Shown here: positions 1 through 52,700 of the stretch, in pieces
Layout: each line of letters starts with the position of its first letter
Numbering within the stretch: position 1 is the first letter of the stretch
Notes under the pieces: model-generated
What the model was told of the DNA's origin: nothing
The model's database searches: none
The model's input: only the letters and a program-made list of their open reading frames with translations
NCBI GenBank assembly: GCA_958009085.1
Contig: OY253690.1
Location: forward strand, 124,001-188,000
Direction: 5' to 3'
Source of the DNA: Protoeuglena noctilucae
Taxonomy: Eukaryota
Length of the DNA stretch: 64,000 nucleotides
Program-made: the position numbers and the translations under genes

Positions 1-3000
1 GCGGGACGGCGACGACGATAGCACAGACGACCACGACCCTTCCCCACGCAACGCCGACGGCCGCAGCAGCTCCGGGGCCAGCAAAAGGTCCGCCGGGTCG
101 CGGTACTCCGCCCCGGGATTCGATCCGCGACCGCTCGGGGTGCCGGGGGAAACGGGGGGAGGTGCACCAGCGGGTGCGCCGGAACGTGCTGTGGCTGCAC
201 CGGAACGTGCTGTGAGCGAGTGGGGGCGCGTGGGGGTGACACGTGCTTCGGAGGATCTCAGAGAGAGACTTTGCAGATCTGTGCGATGACGATCGCGGTC
301 GTTTGCGGTGGTCCGTCGCAGCTGCATGCGCGCTGCTTGCGCTTGGGCCGCGTAGGTGAGACGTCGGTACAGAGCCATTCCCCACGGCAGTCCGATCTCT
401 TTCATCTGATTGAGGACTTGGCCGGTCAGGAGCAGGGAGATGATCTGGGTCTGTGGGGGAGGGGGAAGGGGGGGTGGGGGTTGAGTAGGTGGGGGGAGAG
501 TAACTGTGTAGTGAGGAGCAGGGAGATGATCATTGGCACCAGTCGATTATACAGTACTATTTACAGTGACCTAGTGCGCTACGCTCCACCACCAACACAG
601 CCACCCAACCCCCCGTCCCCACCCCCATCCCCCTCCCCCTCCCCAATGACCCTCTCTCGCCTGCAGCTGCGCCCAGTCCTTTCGTATGAACGCGATGTAG
701 AAGAGCGATATATTGGCGTTGAAGGTGAAGAACACGAACAGCCGCGTGGCCATGGCGTTGGTGAGGGAAGTGTCAGTGCGGTGCATCTCCCAGTCAGCAA
801 GGCGGGACGAGGCCCAGACGTACGCGGACTGCGATTGGAAATGGGTTACAAATCATGAATATATGTAATGTAATATATGATATTATAGTATTTATGATAT
901 GTTGCATCTCCCAGTCGGCAAGGCGGGACGAGGCCCAGACGTACGCGGACTGCGAGTTGTATGAAAAGAGGGATATGTTTTCAGTAAACATGTAGATATA
1001 GATATGTTATACATACAGACATATGCGATGGGACGAGGCCCAGACGTACGCCGACTGAGACGCAACAAGGTGACGGTGGACGAGATGCACCTGTACTACT
1101 ATCAGATACGAATCACATTGTCGTTATGAGTATTCTGAATCCAAAGCACATGTTCACCTGCGATACCGGGATGATAAGCCCGTTCAGCACCCCCGTCACG
1201 GTGCATGCGATGCAGCTATGCTACTGTTTCACCGATACTAATATTAAAACTACTATTGCTCAATATAAATCATATTCACCTGCGACACGGGTATGATGAG
1301 CCCGTTCAGCACCCCCGTGACCGTGGATGCGATGCGGGCGGCAGTGGCGGTGGTGACGGACCCGGGGGACCACAGAGTGGCGCCGAACAGGGAGCCGTCT
1401 CGCAAGTTGCTCTCGATCGTCTGCGTTGATTAGGGAGAGATAATGGTTAAGTGTTTGTTACTTTATCTATAAAGTTGCTCTCGATGGTCTGCGAATAGTT
1501 AGCCACGGCTGTTACCGCCGCCACTCAATCATTAACTCTGATCAAAGTACTTTAACTCAGTGTAACCACTATTCCTCGCCTGCAGCAGTATCATGATCCC
1601 CAGCGACGCGAGGCAGGACACGGCCAGCAGCGCCACGGATGCACTGGCACGCAATGTGCGCTGGAATGATGGGATGTAGTAGACGTCGCCATATGCGGCG
1701 AGGTCGGCCCTGCATGTGATAGGGGTGTGGTTATTAGTATTAATAGTGTGTTTTGTTAATATTGGCAGTCGTATACTAGTAATTAAAACGATAAACCCCA
1801 CTCCCACCAACAACCCCCCCTTCACTGGGGACTCCCCATACACACCTGATCTGCCTCTCCCTCGCCACCGCGTCCCTCCCCTTCATGTTCAGATTCAAAG
1901 CCTCGAACATCCACGCCATCACGCGGCGCTGCTTTCTGGCGTCCGCGCTGCTCAGCTGATCATCAATGCGAGCCACGAACTCTGGCCGCACCGATTGGGA
2001 GAGGGATTCCGAGGAGGGGCCCTGCTCCTGCGAGGATGGTAAGGGGGCAGGGGATATTGTTGGTATCTATAGTTTCACTGTTGATATGTATTATTGGGTT
2101 CTTGCTGTACCTCTTTCGAACATAGCAGTGGAGACGAACTGGGACCCTCATACATACCGAATAGCAATACTAACAATTATTGTTATAGTCATAATAACAA
2201 CAGTAAAAATAAACTCTTAACTCGCCTCCAGTCCGTTCTTCCATAAATATGCGTACCGCGCCTCCTGGGACCCCCACTGCGCCACCAGCCACACCGACCA
2301 CAGTGCCACGAACGCCGCAAATAATACCACCAAATACGTGTATCGGAAATCGAACCCCGATGATCCCCGCAAATCCACCACGTTCACCAGCACCGCCACC
2401 GCAAGGCCCAGCACTGTAGGGGAGGGAGTTGGGGAGTTAGTTGTTAGTAAATATGAATTGGTCATATGAATATGAATGCACTGCGGGGGTGTGTGTTAGG
2501 GGGGCTGATTGTCAGTAGTTAATATAAATGGATACCATGATATGATATGACTATACATTTACGTTTACCAGTATACTTCCATTCCACAAACAAGTACAGT
2601 ATCACTACACCCCCCCCCCCCTCCCAACACAACTATTACTCACCCGACGGCACAATGAGGCTCCTGGTTATAATAAATAATATAATTATATAATCATAAC
2701 CACAAACATCAACCCCCCAATCCACCCCTCACCCGAGGGCACGATGAGGCTACTAGCAAAACTATAACAATGCAGTAATCCTACTTAATTATCGAAAATA
2801 AGACTACAATTACTGATCGCTACTCACCCGAGGGCACGATGAGGCTCCTTGTGTAAGATTGCAGAAACGCAAAGTACAGCCCCCTCTCGTGCCCGAAATA
2901 GTCCATGACCTTCTGCAGAGGCTGACTTAACCATAAGTGGGGCTTGCACCAGAACCACGGGTCGTGGGTCCATGGGAAGGCCCATTCGCGGTTTAACTCG

Positions 3001-6000
3001 CTCAGTCCGGTGGGCTGAAGGGTGCGCACAACGTCCTTGGCCAGGCGGCCGGCCACCAGGGCTCTGAGTTACAAAAGGAGAGTCAGTGATTGCATTAAAG
3101 AATAATGGTTTTAAATTTTATCATGTGACTGTGTCTGTGTGTACCCCCAGTATTAATATGTCAGTAGCTCAATCATGCAGTGTGTCCCCTACCCCCAATC
3201 AACCCCCTCACCTCAAAAACACCTCCGCACCCCCATTCGCGTAGTCCACGCGGCCGTTGCGATCCATCGATTTCGCAGCTTTGGCCTCCAGCAGCGAATC
3301 CATGACTGCCAGCTTCTCGCTGTAACCGAAAGCGTCGTTGGGCTCCACCGACTGATACGGACCCACAAAGTACCTGGGGGGTGGGTAGAGTAGTATGTGG
3401 ATACTAGATGTAAGTATAGGGTTAGGTAAGTATAGCGAGAGGGTTTGTAACTTTTGATATCCACGATGTATAGAATATGGCTACACACATGTAAAGGACC
3501 GGTTATCGTTACTGCATCCGCGCACCACGCACAGTGCTATCCACTCTGATATGCGTTGTCGATAATAACATAATTGTATATCCTCCCACCCCATATCTCC
3601 CACACACCTCGGATACGGGTACGCCGTCCCCGCACACGCTTACCGTGCACATTGTTACATCACTAATTGTAATGTTATATGCTATATAACATTCCAACAT
3701 AACATCACAACATAACAACACATCCCTCCCATCCCCCATATCCCCCACACACCTCGGGTAAGGGTACGCCCTCCCCGGCCCGTCCACGTGGAACGCCAGC
3801 AGCGGGGCGTTTCTGACGAACTGCCCGCGCTTGAAACCGGCGGCGAAGGCCCCCTTGCGGGGATCGGGCCTTATCAGCGTGTGAAACCCCATCTTCTCTG
3901 CGTATAAGCCCAGTCTGTGTAATGGGCATCCGATGAACATCACGCGGCGGTGGAGGTGCGATAGGGGGACGCCGGCGAATGCCAAGAGGGGCTCGGGGAT
4001 GACTGGAGATCTGTGAAAGGGGAAGGGGTGGGGGGAGTTAGTGAATGGGTGAGAGGGGTAAGTGAGGGTGAGTGGGGTGGGGTGGGTGGGGTGAGAATGA
4101 GGGAGTATAAGTGAGTGGAGTGAGTATGGGCATCAGTTGGTGCTAAACCCATGCACACTACTAATGCAAATCCTACATTACATACTATTGATATACACCA
4201 TCCACCCACTCTCACCTCCTCTGCATGACCTGATCGGCGAACTCCCTCATCTCCCCCAAAACGGCGTCAAACGCACGCTCAAACTTCTCCACCACCGTGT
4301 AACCCATACCCACTCCGTAGGGCGAGTGGCGAGTGTCGTCATCGTTATCGTCGTTATCGCCATTATCATCGTTATTATAGCCCCTATCGCGACCTCGCTC
4401 CTTGCTGTTACCGCCCGCATTGCCACCCCCACCCGCACCCGCACCCTCATTGCCACCCGCCCCCGCACTTGCACTCCCACTGGCAGTTTCGCCGGCATCC
4501 CCGCCCGCATTGGCCGGCGCGACGCGGGGGTGGGGGCGGCGGCGGAGCTGCGGTGGTCAGCAAGGGGCGGGCAAGGTTAGTGCAGTCATCGCGTGAGAGA
4601 ATATTAATCGATGAATAAAATTGATCCAAATCTTGATGTCGGTATCGTTGGATTGATCGAATGTGATGAAAGACATAAACATGTACCAACATCGCCCCTC
4701 GCCTTGATCCCCCACCCCTCCTCCTGGGAGGCCTGCGCCTGCCGGGGCGCCAGTGCCTGAAACGGGGAACAAGGAATGGTAATATTATATTACGACTGCG
4801 ATCCCAGGGCGCTCAGCAGTCAGCGAACCTCAACAACCGTTTTTATAATATCATATATCATATAAAACATATACATTCGACTACACTCGCCTTGCTGACG
4901 GCCTCCCGCGCCCTCGCATCCATCATCGGCCTCTCCACCCTCTCCACCGCCACCATCCCCGCCCTCTGCAGCGAGTGCTTTAACGCGGCACGGGCGTGGG
5001 TGAGCAGACCGTAGCCCAGGAAGCACAGCCAGTCGTCGAGGATGAGAGCTTGGGAGGGAAGAAGGAGACGGGATAATAATTATAGTACTAATAGTGATAA
5101 TGATAACACAGCACGGGCGTGGGTCATCATCCCATTGCCCAGGAAACACAGCCAGTCGTCCAATATTAGAGCTGGGGGTGGGGGGAGGGAGGGGAGAACT
5201 GTAATAATCAGATAATATCGCGGATGGTCCAGCACCTCCGCTGCTGCGCGAGTGGAGAGAGCAATAGTGCTATTTGGTTGGTTTAAGTAAATAAGTAATA
5301 AATCAATAAATCAACACTGACCTGGTTTGATCCCGAACCCCCACGCCTCCCTCCTGACCTCCTTGTCGTCATAATCACCCATCTATCATAGTAGTATACA
5401 TATATACATACATACACAACCCACCTGGTTTGATCCCGAACCCCAACGCCTCCCTCCGCACTTCCTTGTCATCGTAGCCACACCCATCTTACATAGAAAT
5501 AAACGCATATCCATGTACCCAACCCAACACTGCTCACCTGGCTTGATCCCGAACCCCCATGCTTCTCTTCTGACCTCCTTGTCGTCATAAAACTCCTTCA
5601 CCGTGGCCAAATCCCCGTGAAGCACGTGGACCAGATGGGAGAGGCGGCTGGCGTACGCCTGGGGAGGTGGGTTAATGCTCGTTATCATTACAATCATAAT
5701 CAACAGTTAAAGTCCTCACCCTCGCTGTTTCTGTTATTATCACCTCATACTCCATCCACATCTCAAATGCAAATCATAGACTTACATAGTACTAGTAACA
5801 TAGTATAAGTAACACAGATGGCATTGGTGCTATAAGCATAACCACTCGCCTTGTTCTGCATCGGCAGCGCCGTTATCGTCGCCACGCACACCCCCCCTCC
5901 CTCGTCACCCCCCTCCCCCCCCTTAATCGCTCGTTTCTCGATCTCGCTGCATGGCGCTGGTATGTGCAATACCACCAACATGTCCGATGGCTCATTGGGG

Positions 6001-9000
6001 TCTCCCGTGTCGCTCGTGTACCCCATCCCGTTGCCCACCAGGCGCTCGCTGAACTCGTGCTCCAGCGTGCGCATCTGCGATTGGTATTACCTCCAAATCT
6101 GTACATGTATGGATCAATATGCAATATACAACTGTTGGTATCTCTACTACTTAACTCAACCTTCCCATCCAACACAACACCCCCGCTTACCACCCCATCA
6201 TCTTCCCGTATGTTCTCTATAAGTCACAATTACCATTAATAACACCCTCACAACAACACTCAATTATACGTTATACTTAAAGTCACTCGCCTTGTACGGG
6301 TCCCCCCCCCTCTTGATCTCCCCGTCCCCCCACCCCATCGCTGGCAATGTCGTCTCCATTACCACATCTGGATTGGTATCGGTCGAAAAAAGACGAGACG
6401 AATGCATAGAGTCGGTGTCGGGTGCATGGCTGGGGTGGCGGGCGGAGTGGGGGTGGCGGCGGGGGTGGGCTGGGGGTGGGGGAGGGAGAGTGCGGGGTGA
6501 GGAATGGTGGAGTGGGTATACATGCAAAGTATACTGGTTTGTATGTCAATCTGTTTATTTGTACTTATGTACACACATGTATAATTGTATAATGATACAA
6601 ATAGTGTTTGTGACACTAGTAATACAAATATATGTAAGACAGTCTCGCCTTGCTTGGTCCTCCTCTCCTCGATGCGGATGCGGACCAGCAGCACGATGTC
6701 CTCCTCGGCTATCTGAGAATGGATAGAGTGACATAGAATTTGAATAGGGAATAAAGCGTGAATGGATGACAGTAATTAGTTTATTGTAAAGTAGTTTATT
6801 GTAAACATGGCAAGTACGCTACACCACCCCATAATAAGCAACAACATACGCCCCCCCGCTCATCCGATTCAAACTCACCAGCCCCCCGTGCCCCTCCTCA
6901 AACAGCGGCAGGTTGAGCCAGGCCGGGTGTGTTTCGTAATCCATCACCGTCGCACGCACACGCAACAACCTCCCCGTATCCTCCGGACCACTCGCGCTCC
7001 CCGCGTGATCCACAGCTCCCTTCTTATGACTAGTAGTAGTATTGCCAGTTTTCGTCCCTTTGTTGCCGGCCCTGGGCTTGGCCCCGCCCAGCCCCCACGC
7101 CCCGACCGCCCCCCTCCGCTCCCCCGCTCCCCGCCCCACCGCCCCCGGCCCCAGCCACTCCGCCGGGAGCTTCTCCGGCGCTTCGTGCGCCAGCCACGCC
7201 ATCTCGCGCTCAATTGCGTGCGCCGCCGCGTTCAGCAGCTGTGGCACGCATCCGGGCCGCAGGTCCCAGGCGGCCCGGCGGGGGGGCGTGGGGTCGCGGG
7301 TTCGAACCCCGCCCGCGTCTCCCGGCGCCTTTGCGCCCCCCACGTCCCCCGGGACGTTGCGGGAGGCGAGGTTGGCCTCGTATCGCAACGCCTGCAGACG
7401 GGCGAAGTAGTCCAACAACACGCGCCGGTCCTTGAAGTAGCGGGGACTGAGGGAATGAAAGGGGAATCAATGTTAAAATAATGGTGAGAGAGGGGTGAGT
7501 GGGTGCATAGTATGCGTGCATGCATGCACGCTTTGATTGTGCAGTGAGCAATCGCCTGTATGACGGCTGACAATAACTAGTGAAATCAAACAAACATGCA
7601 AAGATGCGCATTAGTCACTTATTATTGCAATGATATGACTTCCTCTCTCACCTGTAGGGCCCCCACGGCTCGTCCCCCATCGCCGCCCCCCCACCCTCGC
7701 CCCCGCCCGCATCGGCATCCGATCCGCCGTCGTCATCCTCATAGAGCCGACTGACTGCGGGAAGAGGGAGAATGGAAGTATGTGTAAACAACAGCTCGCA
7801 CATCACCATCGACACTTACTCGTCGTGACGTCGATCGCCGTGCACACCGCCACCGGTACCCACACATCACCATCTACGCCCACACATCACCCTCTATAGT
7901 ATACTACCGTATATCACCCATAACTCACGTCTCCTCGCTCTCGACAGGTCCGCCCTGTCCGGATCGGTCACAAGCGGCGTGACGTCGATCGCCGTGCACA
8001 CCGCCAGCCCCGTCGGCTGCGGGGGCAGCACCTCTGCCAGAAACGACTTGGCCGGGTCTTTCCGTCTGTCTGACATGCGGGGGCTCAGGAAGTGAGCGGC
8101 GGAGGTGAGCCAGGTACGGGTGGTGCGAGTGGCTGCGGCGGTGGTGGTGGTGGTGGTGGCGGTGTTGGATCGCCAGGCTTTGTCGAAGCCACGGGGGAGG
8201 CTGGGGGTGGAAGGGGGAGAGGGGAGCTGGTGTTGTGAATGCATCACATTAGTCATATGTGCATGCTAGGTACTGGAACTACTAATTGTTGGTAGTTCCA
8301 AGCAACACCATCGACATGCTCAAGGGAACGCGTAGGGCATGCTATATATTAGTAACTATCATTAATACCAAACTTCTCACCGGTACGCGTAGAGCATGCT
8401 GTACACTTTGGCGAAGGCGATGCTCAGCGCCACGCGTGCGCAGGTGAGGGGGCGGGCCAGGCCCCTGGGGGGGGAGGGAAGGGGAGAGGGAGTGAGCGAG
8501 TAAGAGGGCAATGAAGTGAGTGAGGGAATGAGTGAGTGAGTGAGTGACAGAAACTTACACAGAGAATTAGTGTAAGTCGTGAGTAACGCTGTCCCCTCAT
8601 CACCTGACGGTGCCGGGCGCGTCTGATAGCTAGTAACTATGATAACAATCTAAACCGGTAACTAGTTAACGATCATTACATATGCTCTGATCATCATAAT
8701 TCGCCCATTGTCACCTGACCGTGCCGGGCGCGTCGTCTGGGAACATCCCCATCAAGCACGCCAGGCGAGCCATCTCCCTGTGAATAAGAGTCAGGGAGTG
8801 AGTGAGAGTAAGAGATAAAAGAGCGAGAGAGAGGAGAGAGGCAGGCGAGAGCGAATGCACCCCTGTTACCCCTCACTGCTACCACCACCCCACACACCTC
8901 ACTGCTACATCACCACCCCACCCCACCCCTCACTCGCACCACCAACCCCATTCAAATCACCCCCCAGCCTCACCACCCCACCCTCACCTGGGGCTCCTCG

Positions 9001-10515
9001 GCACCGGGATCGTATCGGGATGCGGCCTTGTTCGAAAATACACCGTGTAAGGATATGTCGACACCCTCGCAGCACGAATCTCCTCACCCACCCTCCCACC
9101 CACGCCCAGGCCCACGCCACTCACCCCACCCACGCCCACACCACCCATGCCGCCCACGCTTGCACCCACCCCCGCCCCCGCCTGTCCCGCCGCACCGGCA
9201 CCCGACCCCCCCATCCGATACAGCACGATTTGCACTTGGAATATGACACGTGGATTGGAAGTCTTGTTGCGTTGGGATCCCCTGTGTAGGACCAGCTCTA
9301 GCAATGCCTGGGTGTCGAGGTCGAGCTCGTTGTCAGTACCCGAGTCCCCTGTGCCGTAGGGGGTGTGGCTGCGGGCGAAGGGGTGGGATGGGGTCAGAGT
9401 TATTCAAGTGGGTGAAAGAGATGTGCGCGATGGGATACCATGCAGTCTGTGCCGTACGGGGTGTGGCTGCGGATGGGGGGTGGGGGGGTTGCAAGTGGTA
9501 ATCAGGAGACGGTGGCATTGAGTGAGCGATGCGTGCATCCTGCTTACTGTACCACTGTGATTAACTCACCGCACGAGGTCCGCCACCAAAGGATCTGCCG
9601 TGACGTCGACCTCTGCCGTGACCATGCACTGCTGCCCCATAGACACCAAATCGTCGTCCGTCAGCTCGCCCAGGCGGTCGCCCAGCAAGAGGCAGTCCAT
9701 GGACGTGCGCTGGGGGGAGAAAAGGGGGAGAGGGTAAGGGTTCGAGTCTTGCCCTGTATGTCACTCTTGCGGACCATCACACTCCCACCGCCCTCCCATC
9801 CCCAGGCAACCACCCCACCCCATGCAGCAACCACCCCACCCTACCCATCCATCCTCGCCTGTATGTCCTTCAACCGCCTCTCGAGCAGCCCATGGGCGTC
9901 GCTCCGAATCTTGACCAGCTCAGGGTCGTGGGCCGACCCCACGCCGCGCCTCCGCATCCGCTCGGCTGCCCGGTGCAGCGCGCCGTACCACTGCCCCGCC
10001 ATCTCCCGCTGCAGGCTCCGCGGCACGAGCTTGGGGAGCTGTCCCTCGAACCACGCCCTCTCCATCTCACATCGCGCGTCACGCCAGGCCTGCTGGATAC
10101 GGCGACGCACGCCGTCCGCGGAGGGACGCGGCGAGACCCCGCGGACGCACGAGTCCTCGGAAGCCAGGACGTCGAGGCCGAACCGGAAGATGTGAGGGAT
10201 GTGGCCGTCCTTGATCCTCACCACGCGCGTGCCGCTGCAGGAGCTTGGGGAGGAGATTCACGCGCGCAGGAGTTGTGCAGTCGCGGCGCGACGGCATACT
10301 ACCGCGCTCCTCCGCCACTCATATCCGAGCGCGGGACCAATCGCATCGCGACGCGAGCAAACAGCGTCGCTTCATGCGCAGGTCGAAGCACACGACCTCT
10401 CGCATCGCGACGCGAGGTCGGAGAGTCACCGCGTGAGGCGCCGGAACTGCGTATGATTCCTCACGCACCCGCGGTGGGAGCTGCTGCTGCTCCCGTCGTC
10501 CTGGGGCTTCGTCAT
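1..10515 (-). CDS. Anoctamin/TMEM16-like (Ca2+-activated channel/scramblase) multi-exon gene with a long N-terminal region; 3' end lies beyond the window
   Basis: Spliced exons encode anoctamin-type motifs: SQPLQKVMDYFGHERGLYFAFLQSYT (~2850-2930), WEMHRTDTSLTNAMATRLFVFFTFNANISLFYIAF (~685-795) and TQIISLLLTGQVLNQMKEIGLPW (~380-450), plus hydrophobic TM exons. Upstream exons (3200-10500) are on the same strand and linked by splice sites. The start at 10515 (MTKPQDDG) and the single-gene interpretation are tentative. Confidence 0.8.
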
Positions 10516-29200: not shown

Positions 29201-30292
29201 GTGCTATTGGCCACGGACATCGCCGGGCGGGGCATCGACGTGCCGGACGTGTCGCTGGTCGTCAACTACGAGATGCCGCAGAAGGTGAGGGGGAATCGAT
29301 AAACAGTTATCTGATAATAATGGATGATGCCGCAGAAGGTGAGGGTGGATGAGATGCTGGTGATGGACTCGCAATTGAGTAGGAGAAGCCGCAGAAATTG
29401 GCAGTGTGGCGGCAGTCATACACGCGCCCCGTGGTGCCATTGCCAGCACCCTGACGGGACTTCCCCAATGCCCTGCCATGCATTAAGTGATTGCGTGCTG
29501 CCGTCACCATGCACCCCACGCCCCTCTGCCCCCCCATGCCCCTCCCCCACCCTGCGTACTCTTGACTGCCTGCCGCCGTCAGGCACCCCACGCCCCTCTG
29601 CTCACCCCCTCTGCCCACCCCAACCACCCCACGCCCCTCTGCCAACCCCAAGCATCCCACGCCCCTCTGCCAACTCCAAGCACCCCACGCTCCTCTGCTC
29701 ACCCCACCCCGTGCGCAGATCGAGCCATACACACACCGCATCGGGCGCACGGGACGCGCGGGCAAGAAGGGGACGGCCGTGTCCCTGGTCACTGCGGGGG
29801 ACTCTGTCATCTTCTACGACCTCAAGAAGCTGCTGGAGGTGAGGGGTAGCATGCATGGTGTGAGGTCATCTAATGTGACCTGAGGAGGCTGCTGGAGGGG
29901 TGAGGGGGCGTGAAGGAGCATGCATGGTGCGAGGGCTGTGGTGCTTGGGTAGTGGCTGCGACCTCGTGAGAGGCGCAGGGTGGGTGGGTGGAGGTGCAGG
30001 GTAGGGTGGGTGCGGGCATGCAGTGCGTGTGTTGTGCGCGATGCATTGTGCAGCAACATGCAGCTCTCCGCACTCCCCCGCACACATGCGCTGAGCGGGA
30101 CCTGGCATGGTCGACCTGTGCTCGTTTTTAAATGTGGCACAAGTACTGCGCCCCTGGATATCGAGGGGTGTGTGTTGTCGTGATCGGCTTGCATACCTGT
30201 GCTGTCCATGTGCACCGCAGAAGGCCAAGCAGCACATCCTACCCGAGCTCGCACGCCACGAGGCGGCACAGAGGCCAGGCGGGGGCATGTGA
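23213..30292 (+). CDS. PRP28: DEAD-box RNA helicase PRP28/DDX23 (U5-100K), ~17 exons
   Basis: RS/RD-rich N-terminus, [92 protein letters not shown] and [13 protein letters not shown]. Confidence 0.95.
29511..29705 (+). repeat. Intronic minisatellite, ~5 copies of CACCCCACGCCCCTCTGC with variable spacers
   Basis: Copies at ~29512, 29584, 29625, 29653 and 29681 inside a PRP28 intron. Confidence 0.8.
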
Positions 30293-41688: not shown

Positions 41689-42300
41689 GTTGACTCTCAA
41701 ATATGACGTGCGACCCGACTCAACGCGTCCCTCTATCGTCTCAGCCCTTCCTGCAGGAATGAAGATGCGACGTGGGGAAACGGAGCGCGTGAGGCGCAAG
41801 CAAGGACGCTTCCCGTTGCTGAAGGCTTTAAAAGACGTGAGTGTCCTTGCCGGAAAGCGCGGCGACCTATCGCTGCACCAGGCGGGCGAACGAGCCTGTC
41901 GCGTCGCGTGCGGCGCACGAGCCTAACAACGCGGCGCTCCAGCTACCGAAACCCACCGCGTCGCTCACCGTCCACCGTCGGAGCTCATCGTCGTCTGTGC
42001 GATCCGCGGGTCTCCAGTGACACGCTCGGCGGCGCGCGCGGGCAGGCTGGGTCGCAGATCCAGACTTCAGCACTCGGCGATTGCAGCGATGAGCGCGGGG
42101 CCCTTTCCCCCGAGTCAGAGCGATGTTGATGACTAGCGGACGAGCCTAGGGCGGCGGGGTTTTTCCAACCATTTTGTTGGCAGACTGGGTATGGCCCTCG
42201 GCCGGGTGTGAAACATTAGTTGCTTCCCTGTAAAGATCTGTCGCCGTACCAATCTGCCGCCGACGCGCTCGCAGCGTAGCGTGGACAGCACCCGTGGCAA

Positions 42301-43417
42301 ATGGCGCCGTTCCCTGCCAAGGTCGCGGTGGTCGGCTCCGGCAACGTGGGCCTGACCCTGGCCAAGGGCTTCAGGCAGCACGGTAAGCAAGACATGTGGC
42401 ATGCACATCGATCTGCGTGCCGTGCTCCCCCGGCCGCTGGGCCCCGCGCAACCTCCAACTGCCTTGCTGCAAACGCAGGGGCCGCAGTGTTCGTCGGGAC
42501 GAGGAACCCGGGTAAGTGGCACCGTGCGATCATTCCGTGTCACAAACAGATGCCGATGCGATAGGGGAGGACTCGGATACTCTTGCGATAGCGGAGAAAT
42601 CGGACATTGCAAGCGCTAGCGTAATACCCCCGCGCACATGGCGACGCAATAACGAATATCCCCGCGCACATGGCGACGCGTGCACGCAACTAGCCACGGC
42701 GCCGTGCCATCCCAGAGAAGCTCGGCGAGTTTGCGTCCAAGCACCCGGACATCACCATCGGGGCCCCCGCGGACGCCTGCGCGTTCGGCGATGTGGTCGT
42801 TTTGGCCGTCCCCGGCCACGCGGCCAAGAGCGTAGCTCAGGACGTGAGGACGCAACTGCAGGGCAAGATCGTTATGGACACCAACAACCCGATTAGCGGC
42901 GTGGGTCCGGGCGGCGTGTTCAAGTGAGTTTCCCCGTTCTCGATTCTCGCTTTCCACTCCCCAAAGCACAGCTGCATCCGCAATGTATCCCTGCGCCTCC
43001 ATCCCTTGCCATTCTCGCATTCCATTGCCCAAATGCAGCAGCACCCGCAGTGTGTATCCCTGCGCCCCCATCCCCCTCCGCAGCTACTTCACGGATCGCA
43101 ACAGCAGCCTGCTGGAGATCCTGCAAGCGGAGGTGCCGGGCGCGCGCTGGGTCAAGGCGTTCAACAGCGTGGGCGCGGAGATGATGGTCAACCCTGCCCT
43201 CCCGGGCGGGCCCCCGACGATGTTCATTTGCGGCGACGACACCGAAGCCAAAGCCGTCATCGCGGCCATCTGCGTGGCGTTCGGGTGGGACCCTCTTGAC
43301 ATGGGCGTGGCTGCGGCTGCTCGCGCCATCGAGCCTCTCTGCCAGCTCTGGTGCATCCCCGCAATGACCAAGGGCGAGCGGACCTGGGGGGCGTTCAAAT
43401 TCCTCAAGTCGGCGTAA
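42301..43417 (+). CDS. NADPH-dependent F420 reductase-like / COG2085 dinucleotide-binding oxidoreductase
   Basis: Exons 42301-42382, 42479-42511, 42716-42923 and 43084-43417. Motifs KVAVVGSGNVG (Rossmann), DVVVLAVP, GKIVMDTNNP, VKAFNSV, ICGDDTEAK and GWDPLDMG...ARAIEPL. Confidence 0.9.
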
Positions 43418-43726
43418 GGGCACTCGCCAGGGTGATTTACAAGCAGTTTTGCAGGCAGTTTGCAGGACAGGGATGATAGGGATGCACTTGTACAGCGTGC
43501 TGTGTCAGTCGACCTGGGTCGTGCGTATGCTTGAAACGCGACATTGGGCACAGCATTCGATCATACGTCGCGCATCACACAGACAGTCTAGAAGTACTAA
43601 CCATCGCATGCCCGGCCCTGGTCCAGTGGTCGACCCAACGTGGGTTACCCTACCCAGTGCATGCCTGGCCCTGGTCCCTATGTCCCTACTTGCAAATAGC
43701 CATCGCCTCGAGTTACATGGGTTACC

Positions 43727-46700
43727 CTACTTGCAAGCAGCGATCGCCTCCGCGAGCCTCGCCGCGACCGCCCCGTGCACGTGCGCCCCCTCGGCCGCCA
43801 CCCTCGCCTCGCACACCGCCAGCGCCGCCCGTATCCCCTGCCTGTCCCCGATTGCGGCCATCGGCGCAAACACCCTCACGACCAGCAGCGTCCGCGTCAG
43901 GTCGGTGAACGGCCCCGCTGCGTGGGTGAAGCGCGGGCCGCCCCCGCCCGCATGCCCACCGCACGCCTGTGCGGACAGCTGCTCCTCCGGCGACGCCCAC
44001 GCCTCCAGCACCTCCCTCAATGCCGCTGCAGCTGCCGGGGCTATGCGCGACGCCCAGGGTAGGTGGGCTAAGGTGCTGATGCGGCTGCGTACCCAATCGG
44101 CCACCAGGGCGTGTAGCGTCGAGTCCTCCCGGTGCTGGTTGTCTGGACGATGGACAGGGTTGGCAGAGTAGCTAGTAGCATAAGTAGTAGCAAGGGGTTT
44201 GGGGTTTGCATGGCAAAACTATATTCTATACATTATATACCTCTCACCGGCCTCCCGATCGAAGATCTTCTTGGCGTGCCGGTCGACCTTGGCCCTCACG
44301 TGCAGGGGGATGTCGTGAGCAGAGACGCCTGATGTGACGACCGAGGGGGGGCAGCCCAGGAGCCAAGAGACCACCACGTGAGGCCTGAGAGACAGAGATA
44401 GTAGCAGAGCGTGCTTGTTGCAGTGCATGTTTGTTTGAGTTGTAGCTTGGCTAGTGCTACTGCATGTGACGGTGGCCGTCGGCGTGCGGCATATGGCCCT
44501 GCTGCTGACGTTAACAATCATATTTACCATAAATGAGTATGCAAGTGACACTAACACTGACACCAATGAGTTTCTTAATATGCCTCACCGGCACCCCATG
44601 AGTGCTTTGGCCGCCTCCCCCATGGCTCCCCTGAGCACGGCGTCGGGCGTCTCATAACGCGACCCCTCGCGCCCCACCGCCAGCGCCACCGTCTGCGAAG
44701 GAAGGGCAAGGAGGGCTTAAGATGAGATATATCTAAATTATGTGCAGGTGTGCCAAGAGACACGTTGCTGCCATGGATTGACCCATTGTTGTTTTGCCAC
44801 TGGCTACATGCTTCCACCCCAGCTGTGGCTCACATGGCAGGCTATGCATCCATCGAACTATACAACACAACTATCATTCACTTAATGTCCCAATCTTTCA
44901 GTCACCTCCGCCGCATGTCTCCTGACGGCCGGCTCCTCATCCTCCAGCAGATCGAGCGCCAGTGACCAACACCGTGCCGACCAATCCACAGTTACATCGT
45001 CACCCACAGTAGCACTACCAACGCTGACCTCGCTCCCCACGCCACCCCCACCCCCACCACCCCCACCAGCTCCACCACTCCCACCACTCCCACCAGCTCC
45101 ACCACCCCCACCCGCCAAACCACTCCCATACTGTCCCCCGCCGTCGCCACCGCCCCGCTTGCCACCCCCCAGTGCATGCGGAAGCAGCCCCAAGGCTCTC
45201 AGCGCCATCGCCGCCCCCAAGCGCATCTCCTCCACCTCCCCAGGCGCACCCATCGACTCCACACGAGACAAGAAGCCCTCAATCACTCGACTGAGCTCAG
45301 GAGATACATTGGCAACACTGGTACCCGTCGCTGCACCCGTCACTGCACCCGTGCCCACACCTACCCCCACTCCCGCCCCAGCCCCAGCCAATGCCGATGC
45401 CAGTGCCCGGCCCAGCGCAGCCGCCAGGCACCGCGCCCCCTCCCGCGCCACCCTGGGATTGCCCTCCCCGTCCAAAACGCCAGAAAGCACCCCCCACGCC
45501 TGGGGCCCAGGCGCAGCCGCCCCCGCATCCATCACCGCCGCCATCACCCGCAACAACCGCCGACGCGCCTTGTAGCTCCCCTCCTTGCCCACGTGCGACT
45601 CCAACAGCCTCATTACAGCGTCGGGATCCTCCAAATAACCCCGCAACCGATCCGCGGGGCCCGGCGACGGCCCCGGGGTTTCCGACGCCGTCGCCGGCGT
45701 TTCTGGCGCGACAGCGAGGGCGGCGAGCGTCCCGTCCTGCAAACCCTTGAGCCCCGCCGCTCGGACGTCCTCGTCGCCACTGGACAGCAGCAATCGCACG
45801 TCCGCCAGCGTCACACGAGGGCCGAGAGTGGTGGCCACAGCGACCAGCGCTAGCAGCAGCATCACTGGTACCAACGCCGTCGCTGTGAGTGATGTCCCTG
45901 TGAGTGCTGTGACTAGCCCGTGGGGCAAAGCGAGGATCGAAGTGGGCCCTCGCCGCGCGGGCACGGAAGCTCGAACCCCCCACGTCGCACGCATCCGGGC
46001 AGGTGGTGCGTTGTGCGGATGATGTGAGGACTTCCGCAGTGATGGCGCGGATGGCGATGGCCACTTGCTCGCGGAGAGAGCGTGCCGATGCGGCTACGGT
46101 GGTGGTGGTGGTGGTGGTGGTGGCAGTGGCAGTGGTAGTGGTGGTGGCAGTGGCAACCACTGAGCCATCGCTGTGTGACTCGGCACCCGCAGTTGATGCC
46201 ACAGCGTTGGCAGTCTCAGCTGGGCTGTCTGTGTCTGGGGCAGAGTCGGCCCCACGGGCGATGTCCTCCAAGGCATCGTGGCACAGGAGGAGCACCTGAG
46301 TGGAGATAAGAATGGAGACAAGTGAGAGTGAAGACCATCGACAGTATTTGATGTAATCAGATACTCTAGTTACTCCATGGTTACTCCACAGCAGAGTCGT
46401 GATGAGCAGCGACATGGCCGTGCAATCAAAAAAACCGCCAAACGCAAACAATCCATCTCGTCATTCATCATTACCCCAACCCCAACCACCCACTCGCAAA
46501 CTCGCCTCCAGCACCGCCTCCGCCACCGGGCCCGGCGCACTGCCCCCTCGCGCCAAATGCAGCGCCGGCTTGAGCCCCTCAAATACCCTCCCACACAGCG
46601 CCACCGCCACGCTTGGTGTCGCCCCCCCCGCCACCCCCTCCATCAGACCCCCCAGCACCAGCAGCGCCCCGTGAGCCTCGTTCCAGGGCAGTGCTCCCGA

Positions 46701-49700
46701 TGTTAATCGCGACGTAAGGGTGGTGATGAGGTCTAAGGCGTCTGCGACGGTGACGAGCGATGCCAAAGCGCGGGTGGCCAGGCGACGCACGGCGATGTGG
46801 CGGGAGCGGGTGCATGCTGGGGGGGGTAGCGAGATGGGGGTGGGGTGAGTGGAGTTGAGTTGATTTGCGTGGGGGTGAGGTGAGAGGGGTGGGGGGATGG
46901 TGTGAGGGTGAGGAATACTGTCGCATATTGCCAGCGCAAATGCGTGTAAGCAGCAGTCGCTTGCTATCACGACCACAACACCACTCGCCTGCCACCAATC
47001 CCACTCCGCACCATTATTATCAACTCTCATCCATCACCACCCCCCCCACCCCACTCACCCGCCACCATCCCCACGAACGCGGCGGGCGACGGCCCCCCCC
47101 GGTCCCTGGCCCGGAACGACGGCTGCAGCCTGGCCAGCAGCACCAGCACGGGATACAAACAAGGGTGGATGGACGACCCGGGTGGAGCGACGCGTGGGAA
47201 GGGGCGCCGGTTTCTGTTTCTGACACCGACTGGGGGGGACCCTGCGTGCCAAAATCCCCAACGCCGCCGCCGCCGCCCCTCTGCGCATCGCCCGACCCGT
47301 TTTCCGTTCTTCCAGAGTTGCTTGAAATTGCTCCAGCGTTGATCACTCCCTGCTTTGCCCCCTCAGCGCCCCCCTCTTGCTTTGCTGACTCGTCCCCATC
47401 AGTCACCCCGACAGTCGCCTCCCCCTCCCCCCCCAACTGGGCCACGGCCTCGGCCAGCTTCGTTAGCAGGCTGGGGTGCAGGGTTCGATTCCTGAGGAAG
47501 AACTCCCCGCCCGTCACCGACTGCACCGTGCTGCTCCCCCGCCCCTTGTTGCGGTGGCCCACGGCCTTGGCAAGCAGCGCCACGTAACACATGCTGGCGG
47601 CGCTGCGGACCTGGGGGGGTGAGGGTATGGAGAGATATATATAGATATATAGATGTATGGATAAGTGCGTAACACATGCTCGCGGCGTTGCGGACCTGGG
47701 GGTGAGGTAGTGGCTGATGAGAGTAAGAGGGGTTCGTAGAATTGACCTGGGCACCTCTCTCGGTTACTGCAATCCCACTTTGTAAGCTTCCACTGCAATG
47801 CATCCTCCGCGATATCCATTGCCTCTCTCACCCACCACCCACTACCACCCTCCCCCCCCTTCTCCCCTCACCTCCCACTGCGGCGCACTGAGCGCGTCGA
47901 TGGCCACGCGAATCGCCTCCTCGTGCCTCCCATAGGCATCGATCGCCAGGTGATGGGAGAATAGCAGAGCACGAATGGTGTGGAAGGCGTGCACGCGGGG
48001 CCAGGACTGGTCGTAGGTGAGACGGGACGCGTCGCCCGCTACCTGGGGGGGTGGTGGGTGTTATAAAGGTGATGTGAGGGGGGATGTGGGGGGCGGGGTT
48101 GTTATAGGGATGATTTGAGGGGTGGTGTGAGTGGTGATATGGAAGGTGATGTGAAATGCGTAACGGGTGAGAGAGTAAGGGTGCGGTATCACAACCGAGA
48201 GCAAATGACCAACTCACTGAATCTCTCTTACCCCATCACCCACCACATCTCTCACCCGCAGCACATCATCCAGTATCATCCCCATCAGCGGCTTGGCCCC
48301 CCTGGTTGCCACCGCCTCCCCCGCCGCCACCGCCAGCAATGCAGACGGCAGACCCGCAGACCGTCTTGTAATATCATCTCTGCACTGCCCCGGTCGCTGT
48401 AACCAGGTGAGTAGATCGGATGCCCAGGCGTGGGGGTGGGGGGAGAGGTCGGGGCGGCCGGTGGCAAGGAGGACCTGGGGGGGGGGGGTGGGGGGGGGTT
48501 GTGAGGGGTATGGGGTAATAAGAGGGGTGGGTGGTGGGGATGGGGGTGCGATGAGAGATGAGTGATGAAACATGGCTGTAAGGGGTGAGTCATGAGTGTC
48601 ACTGGTGAGCTATCATGGTTGTGACGTGACAAACTCATCTCATTGCATGTCCCACCGCCATCCCTCGCCTGCGTGAGCGTGGCATAGATGCAACACCCAC
48701 ACTCACACACACATCTCATCCCCCACCCCCTCGCCTGCGTGAGCGCGGCCAGGCTCAGCGCCGTGCGGTCCACCGCACCCCTGTGCTTGACGGCCTTCAT
48801 CGCAGCCACCATCGACGCGCCCATCTCGGCCATATCAGAGGCATGGAGCACGCCGTACCAGCGACGATTGGTGGGAGCGTCACTGGTGGTAGTAGCGCTG
48901 TCGTGTTGCGCATTGCTCTCCTCTTGTGCATTGCCAGCATGTGTACTGCCACTGCTCACAGCACCACTGGTCATGGTAGCGCTGTCGTGTTGCGCATCGC
49001 CCTTCGCTTGCGCATCACCCCCATGTTGTGTGCCGCCACTGCTTACAGCACCACTCTCTGTTTGTGCATAGCCCGCCTGTGAATGACCACTTCTCTTAGC
49101 AGCGCCCTTCCCTCGCACATCGCCACCCTCCCCCTCCCCCACCCCTCCCCCTGCCACCCCCACCCCCCCCTCTGCATTCCCCACCCCCACCACTCCATCC
49201 TTTGCCTTATCCCATTCTCCCTCCACGTTTTCTGGCACCAGGGGCACTTTGGATGCAATCTCCGCATACAAGGCATGCACCTCGCGCAGCGTCAGCCACG
49301 TGCCCGTCACCAGCACCTGGGGTTCGGCAGAATGGGGGGAGGAGGATTTTGTGAATGGCTGGAAAAGGCAGTATTATTGTTTCGGATGTTTACTTAGTTG
49401 TTTGGTTAGCAAAGCTGACAGCAACGTGGGTACTTGCCCCTCACATGCCCCTCTCGCTCTCACCACCCCTCGCATTGCCACCCTCCCCTCACCTGCACAT
49501 CTCTATCATACAATATATACACCCCTATCATCCACTCCCACCACCGCCACATCCCCCTCCCCTCACCTGCGCCTCCGACCCCAGCACCCCCTCCCCTCAC
49601 CTACACCTACATCTACACTTATCCATCACACACCCCAATCATCCACTCATCTGCACTTATCTACCACAAATGCCCATCCTCTCACAACCTTTTAATACGA

Positions 49701-52700
49701 CCCTCCCCTCACCTGCGCTTCCGACCCCAGCACCCCCTCCCCCTCCCCCTCCCCCTCCTCTCCCCCCTCATCCCCCTCCTCCACCTCTCCCGCATCCGTG
49801 TTGAGTCGATACTGGCCCAGCACGGGCACACAGAGGGACGAGGCGCGGCGGCACTGGGAGAGCAATGCGGAGAGGGCTGAGCCGAACTGGGGGGGAAGGG
49901 AGGAGGGGGGTTGGGGGTTAGAGTAGGAGAGGTGGTGAATTGTCGAGGGTTGATGGTGGCAAGTGTTGTAGTCTTACTACAACACTTAACCCATTCCTCC
50001 CCCCCCCCTCACCTCCCTCACCCATCGCTCACTCTTAACCACATCACCCACTCCCCCCCTCAATGCACCCACCCCCTCACCTCCCTCCCCCACCTCCCGC
50101 TCCTCGCCACCGCCCCCCACTCCACATCCCCCACGCACGCCCTCGCCATGCACAGCGTCCCATGCGCCAATGCACCCCGGCAAGCGGTTAGCAAATCCAT
50201 ACACCCCGCATCCACGTCACTTGATAGGCGGGCCACCACCGATCGAAGCGTCGCCAGGTGACCCGACAGGTCGAGGTCTTGTGTTGATAGAGGCGAGTTT
50301 CTATTGGCAGTGATGGTTGCGTCGGTATCGTCAGCGATCAGCGACACAGGCGATCTCTTGGCAGTAGTAGTGGTTGGGTCAGTACCACTGTCAACCATCG
50401 ACACAGGCGACGACATCTTAGCAGACGCTTGCTTAGCACTGTTAGTGTTACTCGACTTGGTGGTATCGTCACTGATCGACACAGATGCCATCTTAGCAGT
50501 GATGGTTGGCTCGGTATCGACACTGATCGATGCAGTGCCAGTTGCCCCCTCATCTCTCCCAGCAGCAGCTCTTGGGCTTGTGCATATGCTTGTGTCTGGC
50601 ACCGCGGTGATGGCGATGGCGGGGTGTGCCGTGATCTGCCACCCCCCGCTCCGTGTGTAGGTGCGGAAGAGGAGACTCCACACGCGAGCACCCGCGTCGC
50701 TCTCTGCGTGTCGGGTGGAGGGGGGAGAATCAATGATATTGCAGGTCGAAGTATGATGTTATAGCGCCAGCCTACATCGCCAGTGCAAATTAAGAGAAAA
50801 AGATAATACATAGTACGAACAGATATACACACACCCACAACGACCATCCACTCACCCCTCGCCCTCGGCGACCGCACCAGCCCCACGACCCACACCACCC
50901 GTACTATCAACAGCAATAATAATAATACACAATAATCACAATTTCAAACACCCCAGCTCACCCCTCGCCCTGGGCGACCGCACCAGCCCCTCCACCCACG
51001 GCGCCAGCACCGCCAGTTCCCCCTCGCTCCCCAGCCCCGGCAGTGGCCGTGGCATTTTCATCAAAGCAGCCTCGCAAGACGCCCGCAATCGCACCCACGG
51101 ATCGACCAATCCCTGCACCAGCGCCCAGCACAGGCGGGGCCAGAAGGTGGGCGTGGGGGGTAGGGGTCGATGGGACGAGCGATGTCGACGGCAGTGGGGG
51201 TGGGGGTGGGGGTGGTAGTGCCACTAGTAGCAGTAGCAGTAGCACCGATTGTAGCAGTAACTGTACCACTAGTAGTAGCAGTAGCAGTGGTAGTGGTAGT
51301 GGCAGTGGTAGTACCCGCACTATCACCACCCCCACCCTCACGCCCGCCAATCGTAGCACCGCCCACACCACTGCCATCTCCAATCTGATGCGCCCCTCCA
51401 CCCGCCCCTTCGCCTGCGCTAGTAACTGCGCCCGCATTGCCACCTGCGCCTGCATTGCCCGCTGCTTGGCTGGTCACTGCTTGGCTGTGTATGGTGGGGG
51501 GCCACAGGGTGAGCATGGCGACGAGCGTCTCCGTGGCCATGAACCTGGTCGCGAAGGAGTTAGACGGGAGTATTCCGTTGTTGACAGCGTCGATGACGGA
51601 TTGGAGGAAAGACTCCAAGCGGCGGAGGGTGGTGGGGTCGGCGGGGTGGGGGGGGTGGTTGGCAGAGAGGGACTTGGCGATGCTGGGGGGGGAGTGAGTG
51701 GGAGAGGGGATGAAGGAGTGGGCTTGGGTGGTTAGCAGAGCAAGACATAGAGATGGTGGGAGGGAGTGAGGAAGTGTGTGGGGGTGGCTAACAGAGCGTG
51801 ACTTGGTGAAGAGAGAAGGGAGTGGGGGGGAGTGTGAGGTGAGAGGGGTCGCTAGGGCAAACAGGACTTGAATATTCGAATTTGCAAGTAGTGCAGAGAC
51901 ATGGCAACGGCCTCAGTCCAGCTCCCCCACTCCACGCTCACCGCATCGCCGCCCTCCTCCCCACCGCGTGCACCCTTTCCAGGAACTTGCGTATGGCCGT
52001 CACCCACCGCGACCGCTGCCCCAGGGACGTGCAGCGCAGGGAGTGGGGGAGGAAGCCGGACATGAGGCTGAGCTCTGTATGAAGGGAGAGGAGCGGATAG
52101 ATAAATGAACGAAACGTCGATTGTATTACACATATAATCCCACTCCATCCCATACCTGCCAGTCTCCCCCCCCATTCCCCCCCACCCCCCCTCACCCAGG
52201 TTGTCCAGCGACGCCGTGGGCCTGACCTCTCAAATCTCTCTTTATCCCCTTACACCATCCCTCACGCAACTCTCACCCAATCATCTACCCAACCCATCTC
52301 AGTACCCCATTCTTACACCCCCCTCACCCAATCATATCATACCATCCCCGCCCTCATCCCCACCCCTCACCCAGGTCGTCCAGTGGCGCCGTGGGCCTGA
52401 CCTCTTAAGTCTCTCAATCCCCATCCCAATCATCTCCCTACCCAATCATCTACCCATCTCAATCCCCCTCCATACCACCCCCCCTCACCCAGGTCGTCCA
52501 GTGGTGCCGTGGCCCTGGGCTGCTCGCACACCAGCGCCAGCGCCGCGTTCTGAAGGGCCTCGGATCGGTGGTACAACGCCGCTTTCAAAATCGAGGGGTC
52601 CAGGCCGTGGCGGTCGCAGGCGGCAGCGAGGGAGTCCAGGCGACACTCGCGGCGGGCGGCGCGAAGGAGGCAGACTGAAGAGGGGGGGGAAGATATATAG

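Follow-up and report, generated by a model that had tools for sequence, protein, structure and literature searches.

Short copies of exon ends and splice signals in the introns of Protoeuglena noctilucae and their bias towards silent differences

Most long introns in the genes studied here contain short copies of their own exon ends together with the splice signals; these copies are called echoes below. The genes lie in a 64,000-nucleotide window of the Protoeuglena noctilucae genome (GenBank assembly GCA_958009085.1, contig OY253690.1, positions 124,001 to 188,000), and coordinates refer to this window. The echoes are very probably real and non-coding. Differences between echo and exon carry a coding-type signature that would not be expected if a duplicate simply decayed neutrally, and the codon counts support this; the silent-position bias hints at how these introns grow. 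Literature text searches found no paper describing pervasive intronic echoes.

Repeats were located by blastn of the window against itself on the plus strand, keeping pairs within 3 kb. This gave 42 local direct pairs, 34 of them inside 400-52520; one of the 34 is an ankyrin coding tandem at 20339. On reading the alignments, 29 of the remaining 33 repeats could be placed at a junction (exon end plus donor, or exon start plus acceptor) or on a piece of an exon; the four outside this junction-placed set are at 34072, 42623, 42943 and 48881. The first-pass annotation of this DNA had described exon-end echoes in introns, and these are present. Spacing is 45-293 nt, and 100-125 nt for most. No inverted partners or dispersed copies of echoes were found in the window; the echoes are thus local and direct, and are not a mobile family. 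The DNA between copies had been called unrelated, which is true of roughly half of the families. When 60 nt of intron past each block were aligned and compared with shuffles, flanks were related (z > 2) in 11 of 21 echo families, which indicates that whole-unit duplication happens too.

The most complete gene model is that of a PRP28/DDX23 helicase (24323-29838, plus strand; the homologue name comes from one source). Its curated exons are 24323-24450, 24885-25047, 25353-25547, 25732-25799, 26099-26216, 26389-26672, 26966-27090, 27424-27551, 27707-27810, 28152-28304, 28601-28736, 29147-29284 and 29719-29838. Joined without any echo, these 13 exons give an open frame of 620 amino acids with the helicase motifs, and homologue tblastn queries match the real exon copies only. 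Queries made from exon ends and exon starts were scored on their own intron, with 264 non-adjacent introns as controls. The top true control score was 12; a lone control score of 25 is the same echo viewed from a 68-nt exon. Donor echoes were found in eight of the 12 introns (scores 20-44) and acceptor echoes in four (scores 17-42), so that ten introns have at least one echo above every true control. The two echo-free introns are the two shortest (155 and 172 nt).

Intron 1 of PRP28 holds a stack (24528-24814; self-blastn and control scoring) of one donor echo (24528-24557) and two acceptor echoes (24670-24694 and 24775-24814). Two donor echoes of exon end 25014-25047 were aligned within 25111-25224, and a copy of exon piece 25503-25522 is joined to a decayed donor at 25628-25647 (alignment). 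The donor echo at 25878-25926 matches exon end 25758-25799 over 49 nt with 94% identity; a Logan contig is interrupted at this place, as the exact repeat is longer than 31 nt. Exon start 26966 has two aligned acceptor echoes (26810-26828 and 26886-26906), and exon end 27062-27090 has a donor echo at 27254-27292 (self-blastn). An exact donor echo (23/23) lies at 27840-27862, 45 nt past the real donor at 27810. Acceptor echoes precede exon start 28152 (28030-28080; 94% identity over 51 nt, three synonymous and no nonsynonymous codons) and exon start 28601 (28472-28535; gapped, 78% identity). Exon end 28690-28736 is followed by two donor echoes (28826-28880 and 28957-29006) with a related flank (z 3.1); the three units of this family are each 131-136 nt long. 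An exact 20-nt donor echo of exon end 29272-29284 is seen in the alignment at 29326-29345.

PRP28 echoes are not coding and are not needed for the reading frame; their non-use in RNA was shown at one junction only. Mapping RNA junctions to echo sites had been proposed as a check in the first-pass annotation. It gave a single legible joint, since the table of joints is swamped by the ankyrin repeat: an RNA contig links 26669 directly to 26965, bypassing the two echoes at 26810-26906. It is very improbable that echoes are functional now, either as alternative mini-exons adding peptide repeats or as decoy sites regulating splicing or mRNA decay. Their splice dinucleotides are intact (38/38 letters in donors, 22/22 in acceptors), and in a naive gene prediction four PRP28 echoes (25872-25919, 28034-28078, 28822-28872 and 28960-29005) could be included in frame. 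However, homologues have no such peptide repeats, use of a later donor leads to an immediate stop at 27811, and unit lengths are divisible by three in 7 of 29 cases, which is chance level (hand tally from spacings). The RNA joint also counts against such a role, and decoy sites would give no silent-site bias.

The other three echo-bearing genes are on the minus strand. The anoctamin-like gene is partial (1-9700) and its model is rough, with frames and peptides inferred from GC3; its exon 2829-3062 has a fragment match to Pfam Anoctamin at 27.6 bits, where the cutoff is 28. At least ten of its junctions have echoes. Acceptor echoes at 903-955 (52/53 match; flank unrelated to the real intron, z 1.0) and 1030-1057 copy exon start 782-828 with one synonymous difference each; others copy exon starts 1404-1420 (1472-1493; alignment), 4981-5048 (5104-5177; 81% identity over 74 nt, six synonymous and four nonsynonymous codons) and 9349-9368 (9447-9472; self-blastn). 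Donor echoes copy exon ends 1280-1335 (1149-1213; 88% identity over 65 nt), 2828-2849 (2637-2665, and 2728-2751 with 24/24 identical), 3753-3777 (3589-3632; self-blastn), 5538-5590 (5320-5374 and 5422-5470; flank z 6.3, the two units being tandem copies of each other) and 8715-8734 (8600-8623; alignment). A 29-nt exact copy of 7978-8006, a stretch from the middle of an exon, was found by self-blastn at 7824-7852, with a donor-like motif after the copy. In the gene which the first-pass annotation named IQ/PH, a putative assignment, self-blastn gave a donor echo of 37672-37703 at 37601-37632. It also gave one of 39459-39515 at 39317-39373, with an unusually long intron part (32 nt). The THADA/TRM732-like gene (rough limits 40586-53481, rough model) has Pfam DUF2428 and TPR_Trm732_C matches. 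Self-blastn hits in this gene are an acceptor echo of 47583-47610 at 47668-47702, a donor-type echo of 50957-50999 at 50851-50893 whose splice point is ambiguous, and two donor echoes (52182-52240 and 52363-52415) of exon end 52489-52517; a donor echo of 48728-48749 was aligned at 48662-48683.

An assembly artefact, in which two haplotypes or strains are merged in one contig, is extremely improbable and was rejected. The assembly may derive from a metagenome sample, and culture depth is uneven: contig depth in the culture of organism A is about 180-200 over 24-31 kb versus 84-124 over 32.4-40 kb. However, all 576 sampled 31-mers, including those across joints between filler and echo, are present in each of four runs of cultured organism A, and 98% and 96% of them in two metagenome runs (two samples, one study). 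Independently built contigs of 1.2-3.2 kb (24000-25801, 25897-27134 and 28013-31257) are identical to the window, and each runs through several exons, filler and echoes; the window contains no N. These contigs show exon and echoes on one molecule, a point for which the first-pass annotation had proposed long reads, and so exclude the haplotype mixing it had offered as an alternative.

Similarity around the junction is lopsided. Among 30 echo-exon pairs compared without gaps, it covers 20-60 nt on the exon side and only 6-10 nt on the intron side. On the exon side, identities for the 1-10 nt and 11-20 nt intervals are 94% and 87% in donor echoes, and 92% and 88% in acceptor echoes. On the intron side of donor echoes, identity is 100% at +1/+2, so that the GT or GC of the echo always equals that of the real site; it falls to 87% at +3 to +6, 54% at +7 to +10, and then 32-38%. 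In acceptor echoes the AG always matches, followed by 68% and then 41% or lower. This profile supports the view that similarity extends over the letters under selection in a functional junction (the codons and the splice consensus) and goes no further.

Codon counts come from 29 curated blocks with small numbers, in frames taken from GC3 rather than transcripts. There are 50 synonymous and 25 nonsynonymous codons over all blocks; unique differences number 49 at the third codon position versus 25 at the first and second. The first-pass annotation had called the differences mostly synonymous; the excess holds, at 2:1 over all blocks instead of the 13:1 of its cited cases, which were the best ones. 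Recounting gave the same six synonymous and one nonsynonymous codons for 1149-1213 versus 1271-1335, and again 5/0 for 5320-5374 versus 5536-5590 and 3/0 for 28030-28080 versus 28148-28198. The 9/1 reported for 5422-5470 was recovered as 7/1 in a 46-nt block plus two synonymous codons just outside. For 2637-2665 versus 2821-2849, the absence of nonsynonymous codons was reproduced, with two synonymous codons in the recounted block and not three. Of the earlier interpretation as a whole, real DNA, dispensability for the frame and coding-type differences stand; the signature is weaker than had been claimed.

Plain local duplication followed by neutral decay, with a third-position excess arising from base composition and silent exon change, is quite improbable. 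Third positions are 86% G/C. In its favour, strong-to-weak changes are about equally frequent per site at positions 1 and 2 of the echo (15/275) and, in either direction, at third positions (15 and 17 among some 210-240 sites). The fairest null lets the echo decay freely and the exon change only silently, with base-class rates and both lineages free at position 3. The third-position excess speaks against this conservative null only at p 0.02-0.05, with 0.023 as the value under base-class rates; an equal-time model predicts about six non-silent third-position changes where two were seen (p about 0.05). Against neutral decay, 47 of the 49 third-position differences are silent versus 36.5 expected (p 9e-5), and all 17 G<->C changes fall in fourfold codons, which account for no more than 116 of the 211 third-position G/C sites. 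The first and second positions differ at just 5% (25/486), while intron past +10 is at random identity. In addition, the least related flanks belong to the least diverged blocks. At positions 1 and 2 the echoes have moved towards A/T (15 versus 4), whereas position 3 shows no such trend (15 versus 17).

The coding-type signature and the constraint-shaped profile would also fit capture of alleles, the model of the first-pass annotation. To repair a break in an exon, one broken end would invade an allele of high divergence and copy its exon end and some intron, and end joining would follow; the old exon end would be retired into the intron, and echoes would be former functional exon ends. A diverged allele may be present in the same culture as the window haplotype, as the half-depth region at 32.4-40 kb suggests, and a metatranscriptome variant has a silent difference at the PRP28 exon 6/7 joint. 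This origin nevertheless seems rather unlikely. Exact or near-exact blocks at 27840-27862, 2728-2751 and 903-955 have unrelated flanks; for the latter two and 25878-25926 (z 0.3-1.0 against the real intron), the alleles would need to be almost equal in exons yet unalignable in introns. Private changes give the predicted order, outer echoes being older, in one of three three-copy families (52182/52363, and not 5320/5422 or 28826/28957). Moreover, the window haplotype is near-identical in culture and metagenome runs, the latter being two samples from one study.

Concerted evolution in cis is likewise a doubtful explanation. Through gene conversion or unequal crossover, old tandem duplicates spanning the junction would go on trading sequence with the working one; letters would stay alike only where selection pins them in the working copy, and nonsynonymous echo variants would be purged once copied into the exon, which is feasible given a very large population. 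Sharp-edged identical blocks within diverged flanks, similarity that mirrors functional constraint, the broad range of divergence among blocks (from none to about 50% of third positions) and the lack of an A/T shift at third positions are consistent with it. However, it depends on postulated indirect selection, and under simple two-way conversion the per-site ratio of differences at third to those at first and second positions should not exceed about 2, where about 3-4 is seen (p 0.023). Differences within blocks show no mosaic clustering (summed longest identical runs 252 versus 261 under the null) and become neither denser nor sparser away from the junction (mean relative position 0.52); hence nothing points directly to partial conversion tracts, which also counts against the preferred reading below.

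The best reading is that echoes are repair copies primed by microhomology at splice motifs, with added unit duplications, and made from or refreshed by functional copies. It is held tentatively, at somewhat below an even chance for the complete explanation, mechanism included. Echoes would be non-coding scars of DNA repair which accumulate in the introns and lengthen them by steps of about 100 nt. An intronic break or stalled fork would be repaired by a short template switch, primed by microhomology between an intronic splice-site-like motif and the nearby true splice site; donors here read G(T/C)GAG and acceptors end in CAG. Synthesis would run 15-70 nt into the adjacent exon and stop, leaving a direct copy of exon end and splice consensus with unrelated DNA on either side. 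Once two copies were present, unequal exchange could duplicate the whole unit further. The spliceosome would pair the donor that comes first with the acceptor that comes last, which keeps the echoes intronic. Functional but diverged sequence would often have served as the template or as a later gene-conversion donor; the simplest candidates are the homologous allele and the working exon. Alternatively, the short intron-side match could be the footprint of selection or conversion on constrained letters instead of repair priming.

Templated insertions, or filler DNA, arise at repaired breaks through polymerase-theta end joining and microhomology-mediated template switching. Like echoes, they are short local direct copies that lie beside unrelated filler and whose edges are defined by a few bases in common. 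To our knowledge, no description of them includes systematic priming at splice consensus motifs, occupation of most introns in one gene, or coding-type divergence. Intron gain and growth by internal tandem genomic duplication is reportedly treated in the Rogers model and by Gao and Lynch in 2009.

The same process is reported for potato RdRp (PMC4974935). As in echoes, the splice signal lies inside the duplicated segment and the intron becomes longer; such duplications are tolerated because the extra copy is spliced out. In such cases, whole segments with related flanks are duplicated, whereas half of the echo families lack related flanks and the intron match is 6-10 nt. Introners are intron-generating transposons, found for example in pelagophytes (10.1101/2021.10.25.465678); as with echoes, intron sequence is gained in a marine alga that uses GC donors often. 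They are dispersed multi-copy elements with terminal repeats; in contrast, echo filler has no other copy or inverted repeat in the window, and each echo matches its own adjacent exon only. In human F7 intron 7, the first unit of a 37-bp VNTR minisatellite spans the exon 7 donor (PMC1557585). Direct repeats thus bring the exon end and 5' splice site into the intron; these copies are reported to be silent pseudo-sites, with splicing from the donor furthest upstream, as in echoes. F7 is a single locus with uniform head-to-tail units, whereas echoes occur in most long introns of several genes and at both donors and acceptors. Echo units are unequal and their filler is often unrelated; only exon letters and splice consensus are alike, with a bias towards silent sites.

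Introns in the large genes of the window carry stacks of echoes, short direct copies of the neighbouring exon end with its donor or of the exon start with its acceptor. These stacks are a real and unusual intron architecture. The first-pass annotation, made by a model from the bare sequence, had reported such copies, and comparison of the window with itself (blastn) bears this out, with 34 local direct pairs in 400-52520. With one ankyrin coding tandem set aside, 29 of 33 pairs fall on an exon piece or on a junction (exon end plus donor, or exon start plus acceptor), and 4 are unclassified. Donor echoes lie downstream of the real donor and acceptor echoes upstream of the real acceptor; both types occur within some introns, such as intron 1 of the PRP28 gene. 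The direct copies hold 18-74 nt of exon-derived sequence and are spaced 45 to 293 nt apart, at no constant interval. Each echo has one splice site and ends abruptly within exon sequence. All 19 donor echoes share the GT or GC of the real site and all 11 acceptor echoes retain AG; at the far edge, reading of the alignments reveals no consistent AG or G[T/C]. The four unclassified repeats (34072-34241, 42623-42679, 42943-43074 and 48881-49055) may be intronic or coding tandem repeats.

The window is eukaryotic DNA with G+C-rich exons (about 86% G/C at third codon positions) and A+T-richer introns. The donor consensus is G[T/C]GAG, and 5 of 13 donors in PRP28 are GC. In this abundance of GC donors the window resembles what has been reported for Emiliania huxleyi (55-61%; PMC7779022 and PMC4028052), and it does not fit the intron-poor pelagophytes (10.1101/2024.10.30.620910); both comparisons are leads only. 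Among the gene names of the first-pass annotation, THADA (roughly 40586..53481, minus strand) has Pfam support, and PRP28/DDX23 (24323..29838, plus strand) agrees with homologues and with the naming of those homologues in one source. The name anoctamin (1..9700, minus strand) draws a weak Pfam match, with 27.6 bits against a cutoff of 28 in a single exon fragment.

PRP28 served as the main test gene. Its model was assembled from the copies that touch exon bodies, and consists of 13 exons in a single open frame of 620 amino acids with helicase motifs present; this reading frame is complete without any echo. The best long protein hits are 59-70% identical to it, so none offers a transcript-based model of this organism; tblastn with homologues gives matches in the model copies only. 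ORF length does not work for choosing frames in such G+C-rich DNA; the stop-free frame with the highest GC3 was used instead. A simple GC3-based gene finder absorbs four PRP28 echoes as in-frame mini-exons (25872-25919, 28034-28078, 28822-28872 and 28960-29005), which produce tandem peptide repeats absent from homologues; automatic gene finder output was kept out of all counts. Intact pseudo splice sites with exon-like codon usage mislead gene finders, and these four echoes are an annotation trap; spliced-read aligners are probably misled as well.

Each PRP28 intron was searched for copies of the exon ends on either side of it; 264 comparisons against other introns served as control, and the top true control score was 12. 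Donor echoes are found in 8 of the 12 introns, acceptor echoes in 4, and at least one echo in 10. Echoes are missing from the two shortest introns only (155 and 172 nt); the introns that have them measure 184-434 nt. Transposons and slippage are the usual explanation for intron lengthening; in these intron-rich genes, a single and simple local process seems to be responsible for most of the added length.

Mixing of haplotypes during assembly is rejected as an explanation: junction words occur in independent reads, and identical contigs cross the echoes. All 576 sampled 31-mers of 24300-29900 are present in each of four sequencing runs of the cultured organism (organism A). The same words are found at 98% and 96% in two marine metagenome runs, which are two samples of one study, one of which may be the source. 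Independent contigs from one culture run, built from short rather than long reads, show no difference from the window in 24000-25801, 25897-27134, 28013-31257 and three more pieces; they are interrupted only where an exact echo repeat exceeds 31 nt. Since the joints between filler and echo are present in reads, the arrays were not stitched from two haplotypes. Culture contigs identical to the window have a depth of 84-124 over 32399-40000, against 178-199 over 24000-31257. The halved depth at 32.4-40 kb hints at diverged haplotypes in the culture; the second haplotype may be diverged or missing there. In a run labelled as a different organism (organism B), contigs of low depth match the window exactly or almost exactly at 25588-25837 and 26524-26834, introns included. 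Given this match, organism B is rejected as a diverged relative; its culture seems to hold the same genome at a low level. A search of metagenome contigs with an anoctamin exon gave 599 pattern matches, of which none was confirmed as a relative.

The shape of the similarity is more telling than the silent-site bias of the echoes. On the exon side, identity in donor echoes is 94% over the first 10 nt and 87% at 11-20 nt; in acceptor echoes it is 92% and 88%. On the intron side of donor echoes it is 100% at +1/+2, 87% at +3 to +6 and 54% at +7 to +10, and is random further in; acceptor echoes follow a similar pattern. The intron-side match stops at +6 to +10 for donors, or at -3 to -7 for acceptors. 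Exact and near-exact blocks (23/23, 24/24 and 52/53) have unrelated flanks; among the most diverged blocks, a clear relationship of the flanks is seen in some (5422-5470, z 6.3; 5104-5177, z 3.4, where z scores the intron-flank alignment against shuffles). The earlier description of unrelated DNA between copies holds for some families and fails in 11 of 21, in which related flanks extend beyond the block. The appearance of a whole-unit array is limited to 28690-29007 and 5320-5590. Two kinds of event seem to be involved: the copying of a short patch edged at the splice consensus, and the duplication of whole units in an existing array.

Mobile elements are an unlikely source, as nothing inverted or dispersed is associated with the echoes. 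There are no local inverted repeats at them and no terminal inverted repeats with a short target-site duplication; far plus-strand matches of echo or filler are absent from the 64-kb window except between ankyrin paralogues. An introner or other transposon-derived intron is likewise unlikely, with no dispersed family in the 64-kb window and no terminal inverted repeats. Duplicated alternative exons, mutually exclusive or cassette, do not fit the structure of the echoes, which are partial exon copies with a single splice site.

The short patches may have arisen by template switching in the course of repair. The handful of bases common to an intronic splice-like motif and the true site would act as primer, and synthesis would then continue into the exon. 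Switching and copying of this kind would give a lopsided match with an abrupt far edge, in direct orientation and at short distance. Templated insertions at repaired breaks are a related phenomenon. As is characteristic of these, echoes are short direct copies of nearby sequence, one edge lies where a few bases are shared, and the exact blocks have unrelated flanks. Intron growth by tandem duplication (PMC4974935 and older work) is another related process. The closest single known case is the minisatellite in intron 7 of human F7 (PMC1557585), whose first unit spans the donor. Like the echoes, arrays of this IVS7 type have a first unit over the exon-intron boundary and later units with pseudo splice sites; unlike the echoes, their units are head-to-tail, have a constant period and are alike throughout. 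What sets the window apart from known cases is that the copies are pervasive and affect donors and acceptors alike, that their edge is limited to the splice consensus, and that their differences favour silent sites. Full-text searching of a limited literature collection turned up no account of introns pervaded by exon-end copies.

Divergence was assessed in 29 ungapped exon/echo blocks, each read in the frame of its real exon alone (stop-free, highest GC3). The 925 exon-derived letters contain 82 differences, of which 15 are at codon position 1, 11 at position 2 and 56 at position 3. Echo differences had been described as mostly synonymous; the quoted ratio of 26:2 comes from the best cases, and all blocks together give 50 synonymous and 25 nonsynonymous codon differences. 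With shared changes counted once, 49 fall at third positions and 25 at first or second positions, over 727 sites. The third-position excess has p 8e-9 against an even spread and p 0.023 against the fairest decay null, in which base-class rates come from positions 1 and 2 and both lineages are free at position 3. A cleaner test keeps codon position and base constant: of the 49 changes at third positions it expects 36.5 to be silent, and 47 are (p 9e-5). If half of these third-position changes arose in a freely decaying echo, hand arithmetic gives about 6 non-silent changes; 2 are seen (p ~0.05). All 17 G<->C changes fall in fourfold codons, though these hold only 116 of 211 G/C third positions. 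Echoes drift towards A/T at positions 1 and 2 (15 vs 4); this drift is absent at position 3 (15 vs 17). The first-pass inference that echoes were functional coding sequence until recently thus has real but moderate support. If the bias extends genome-wide, intronic copies still trade sequence with working exons, or derive from diverged alleles.

Divergence of a coding type would imply that the sequence was copied, at the outset or in later conversion, from a functional version with silent differences, be it the homologous allele or the working exon. The first-pass annotation proposed allele capture as a candidate model for the silent differences, whereby an exon end copied from a diverged allele displaces the old one into the intron. 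Capture is a possible source of echoes, though two observations sit badly with it: near-identical echoes have unrelated flanks, and private changes follow the predicted order in one of three families. Testing revealed neither conversion mosaics nor a gradient from the junction; partial conversion tracts are not visible. It is conceivable, though rather unlikely, that the introns preserve former functional exon ends in layers. Each echo would then have come from, or once been, a working diverged allele; introns would have grown as strongly diverged homologues were used in repair; and the stacks would be a record of past alleles. Such layering would represent an undescribed mode of intron growth and an undescribed form of exon-intron exchange.

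Echoes appear to lie outside the mature message; low-level use of their splice sites is possible. Among the RNA joints listed, one in a metatranscriptome contig leads from 26669 straight to 26965, past both acceptor echoes of that intron. A metatranscriptome contig over this exon 6/7 joint (26669-26966) has two differing letters, which amount to one silent codon change. Its depth of 25.5 is higher than that of most RNA contigs listed (3.65-33.6), so a close relative or another allele is expressed in that sample.

Two paralogous ankyrin-repeat genes, at 19397-20902 and 30627-32609, are 78-84% alike across ~900 nt, and the second has an additional weak F-box match. Contigs of these genes reach depths in the thousands, which indicates very many copies of the family in the culture and ocean samples. 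A further ankyrin-repeat region at 56500-61150 (minus strand) has coding tandem units of 201-207 nt and contains an internal duplication of ~2.5 kb (57931-58635 vs 60381-61146, 80-85% identity). Between the first ankyrin gene and PRP28, an open frame at 21549-22838 (minus strand) encodes a CCDC90-like domain (65.5 bits).
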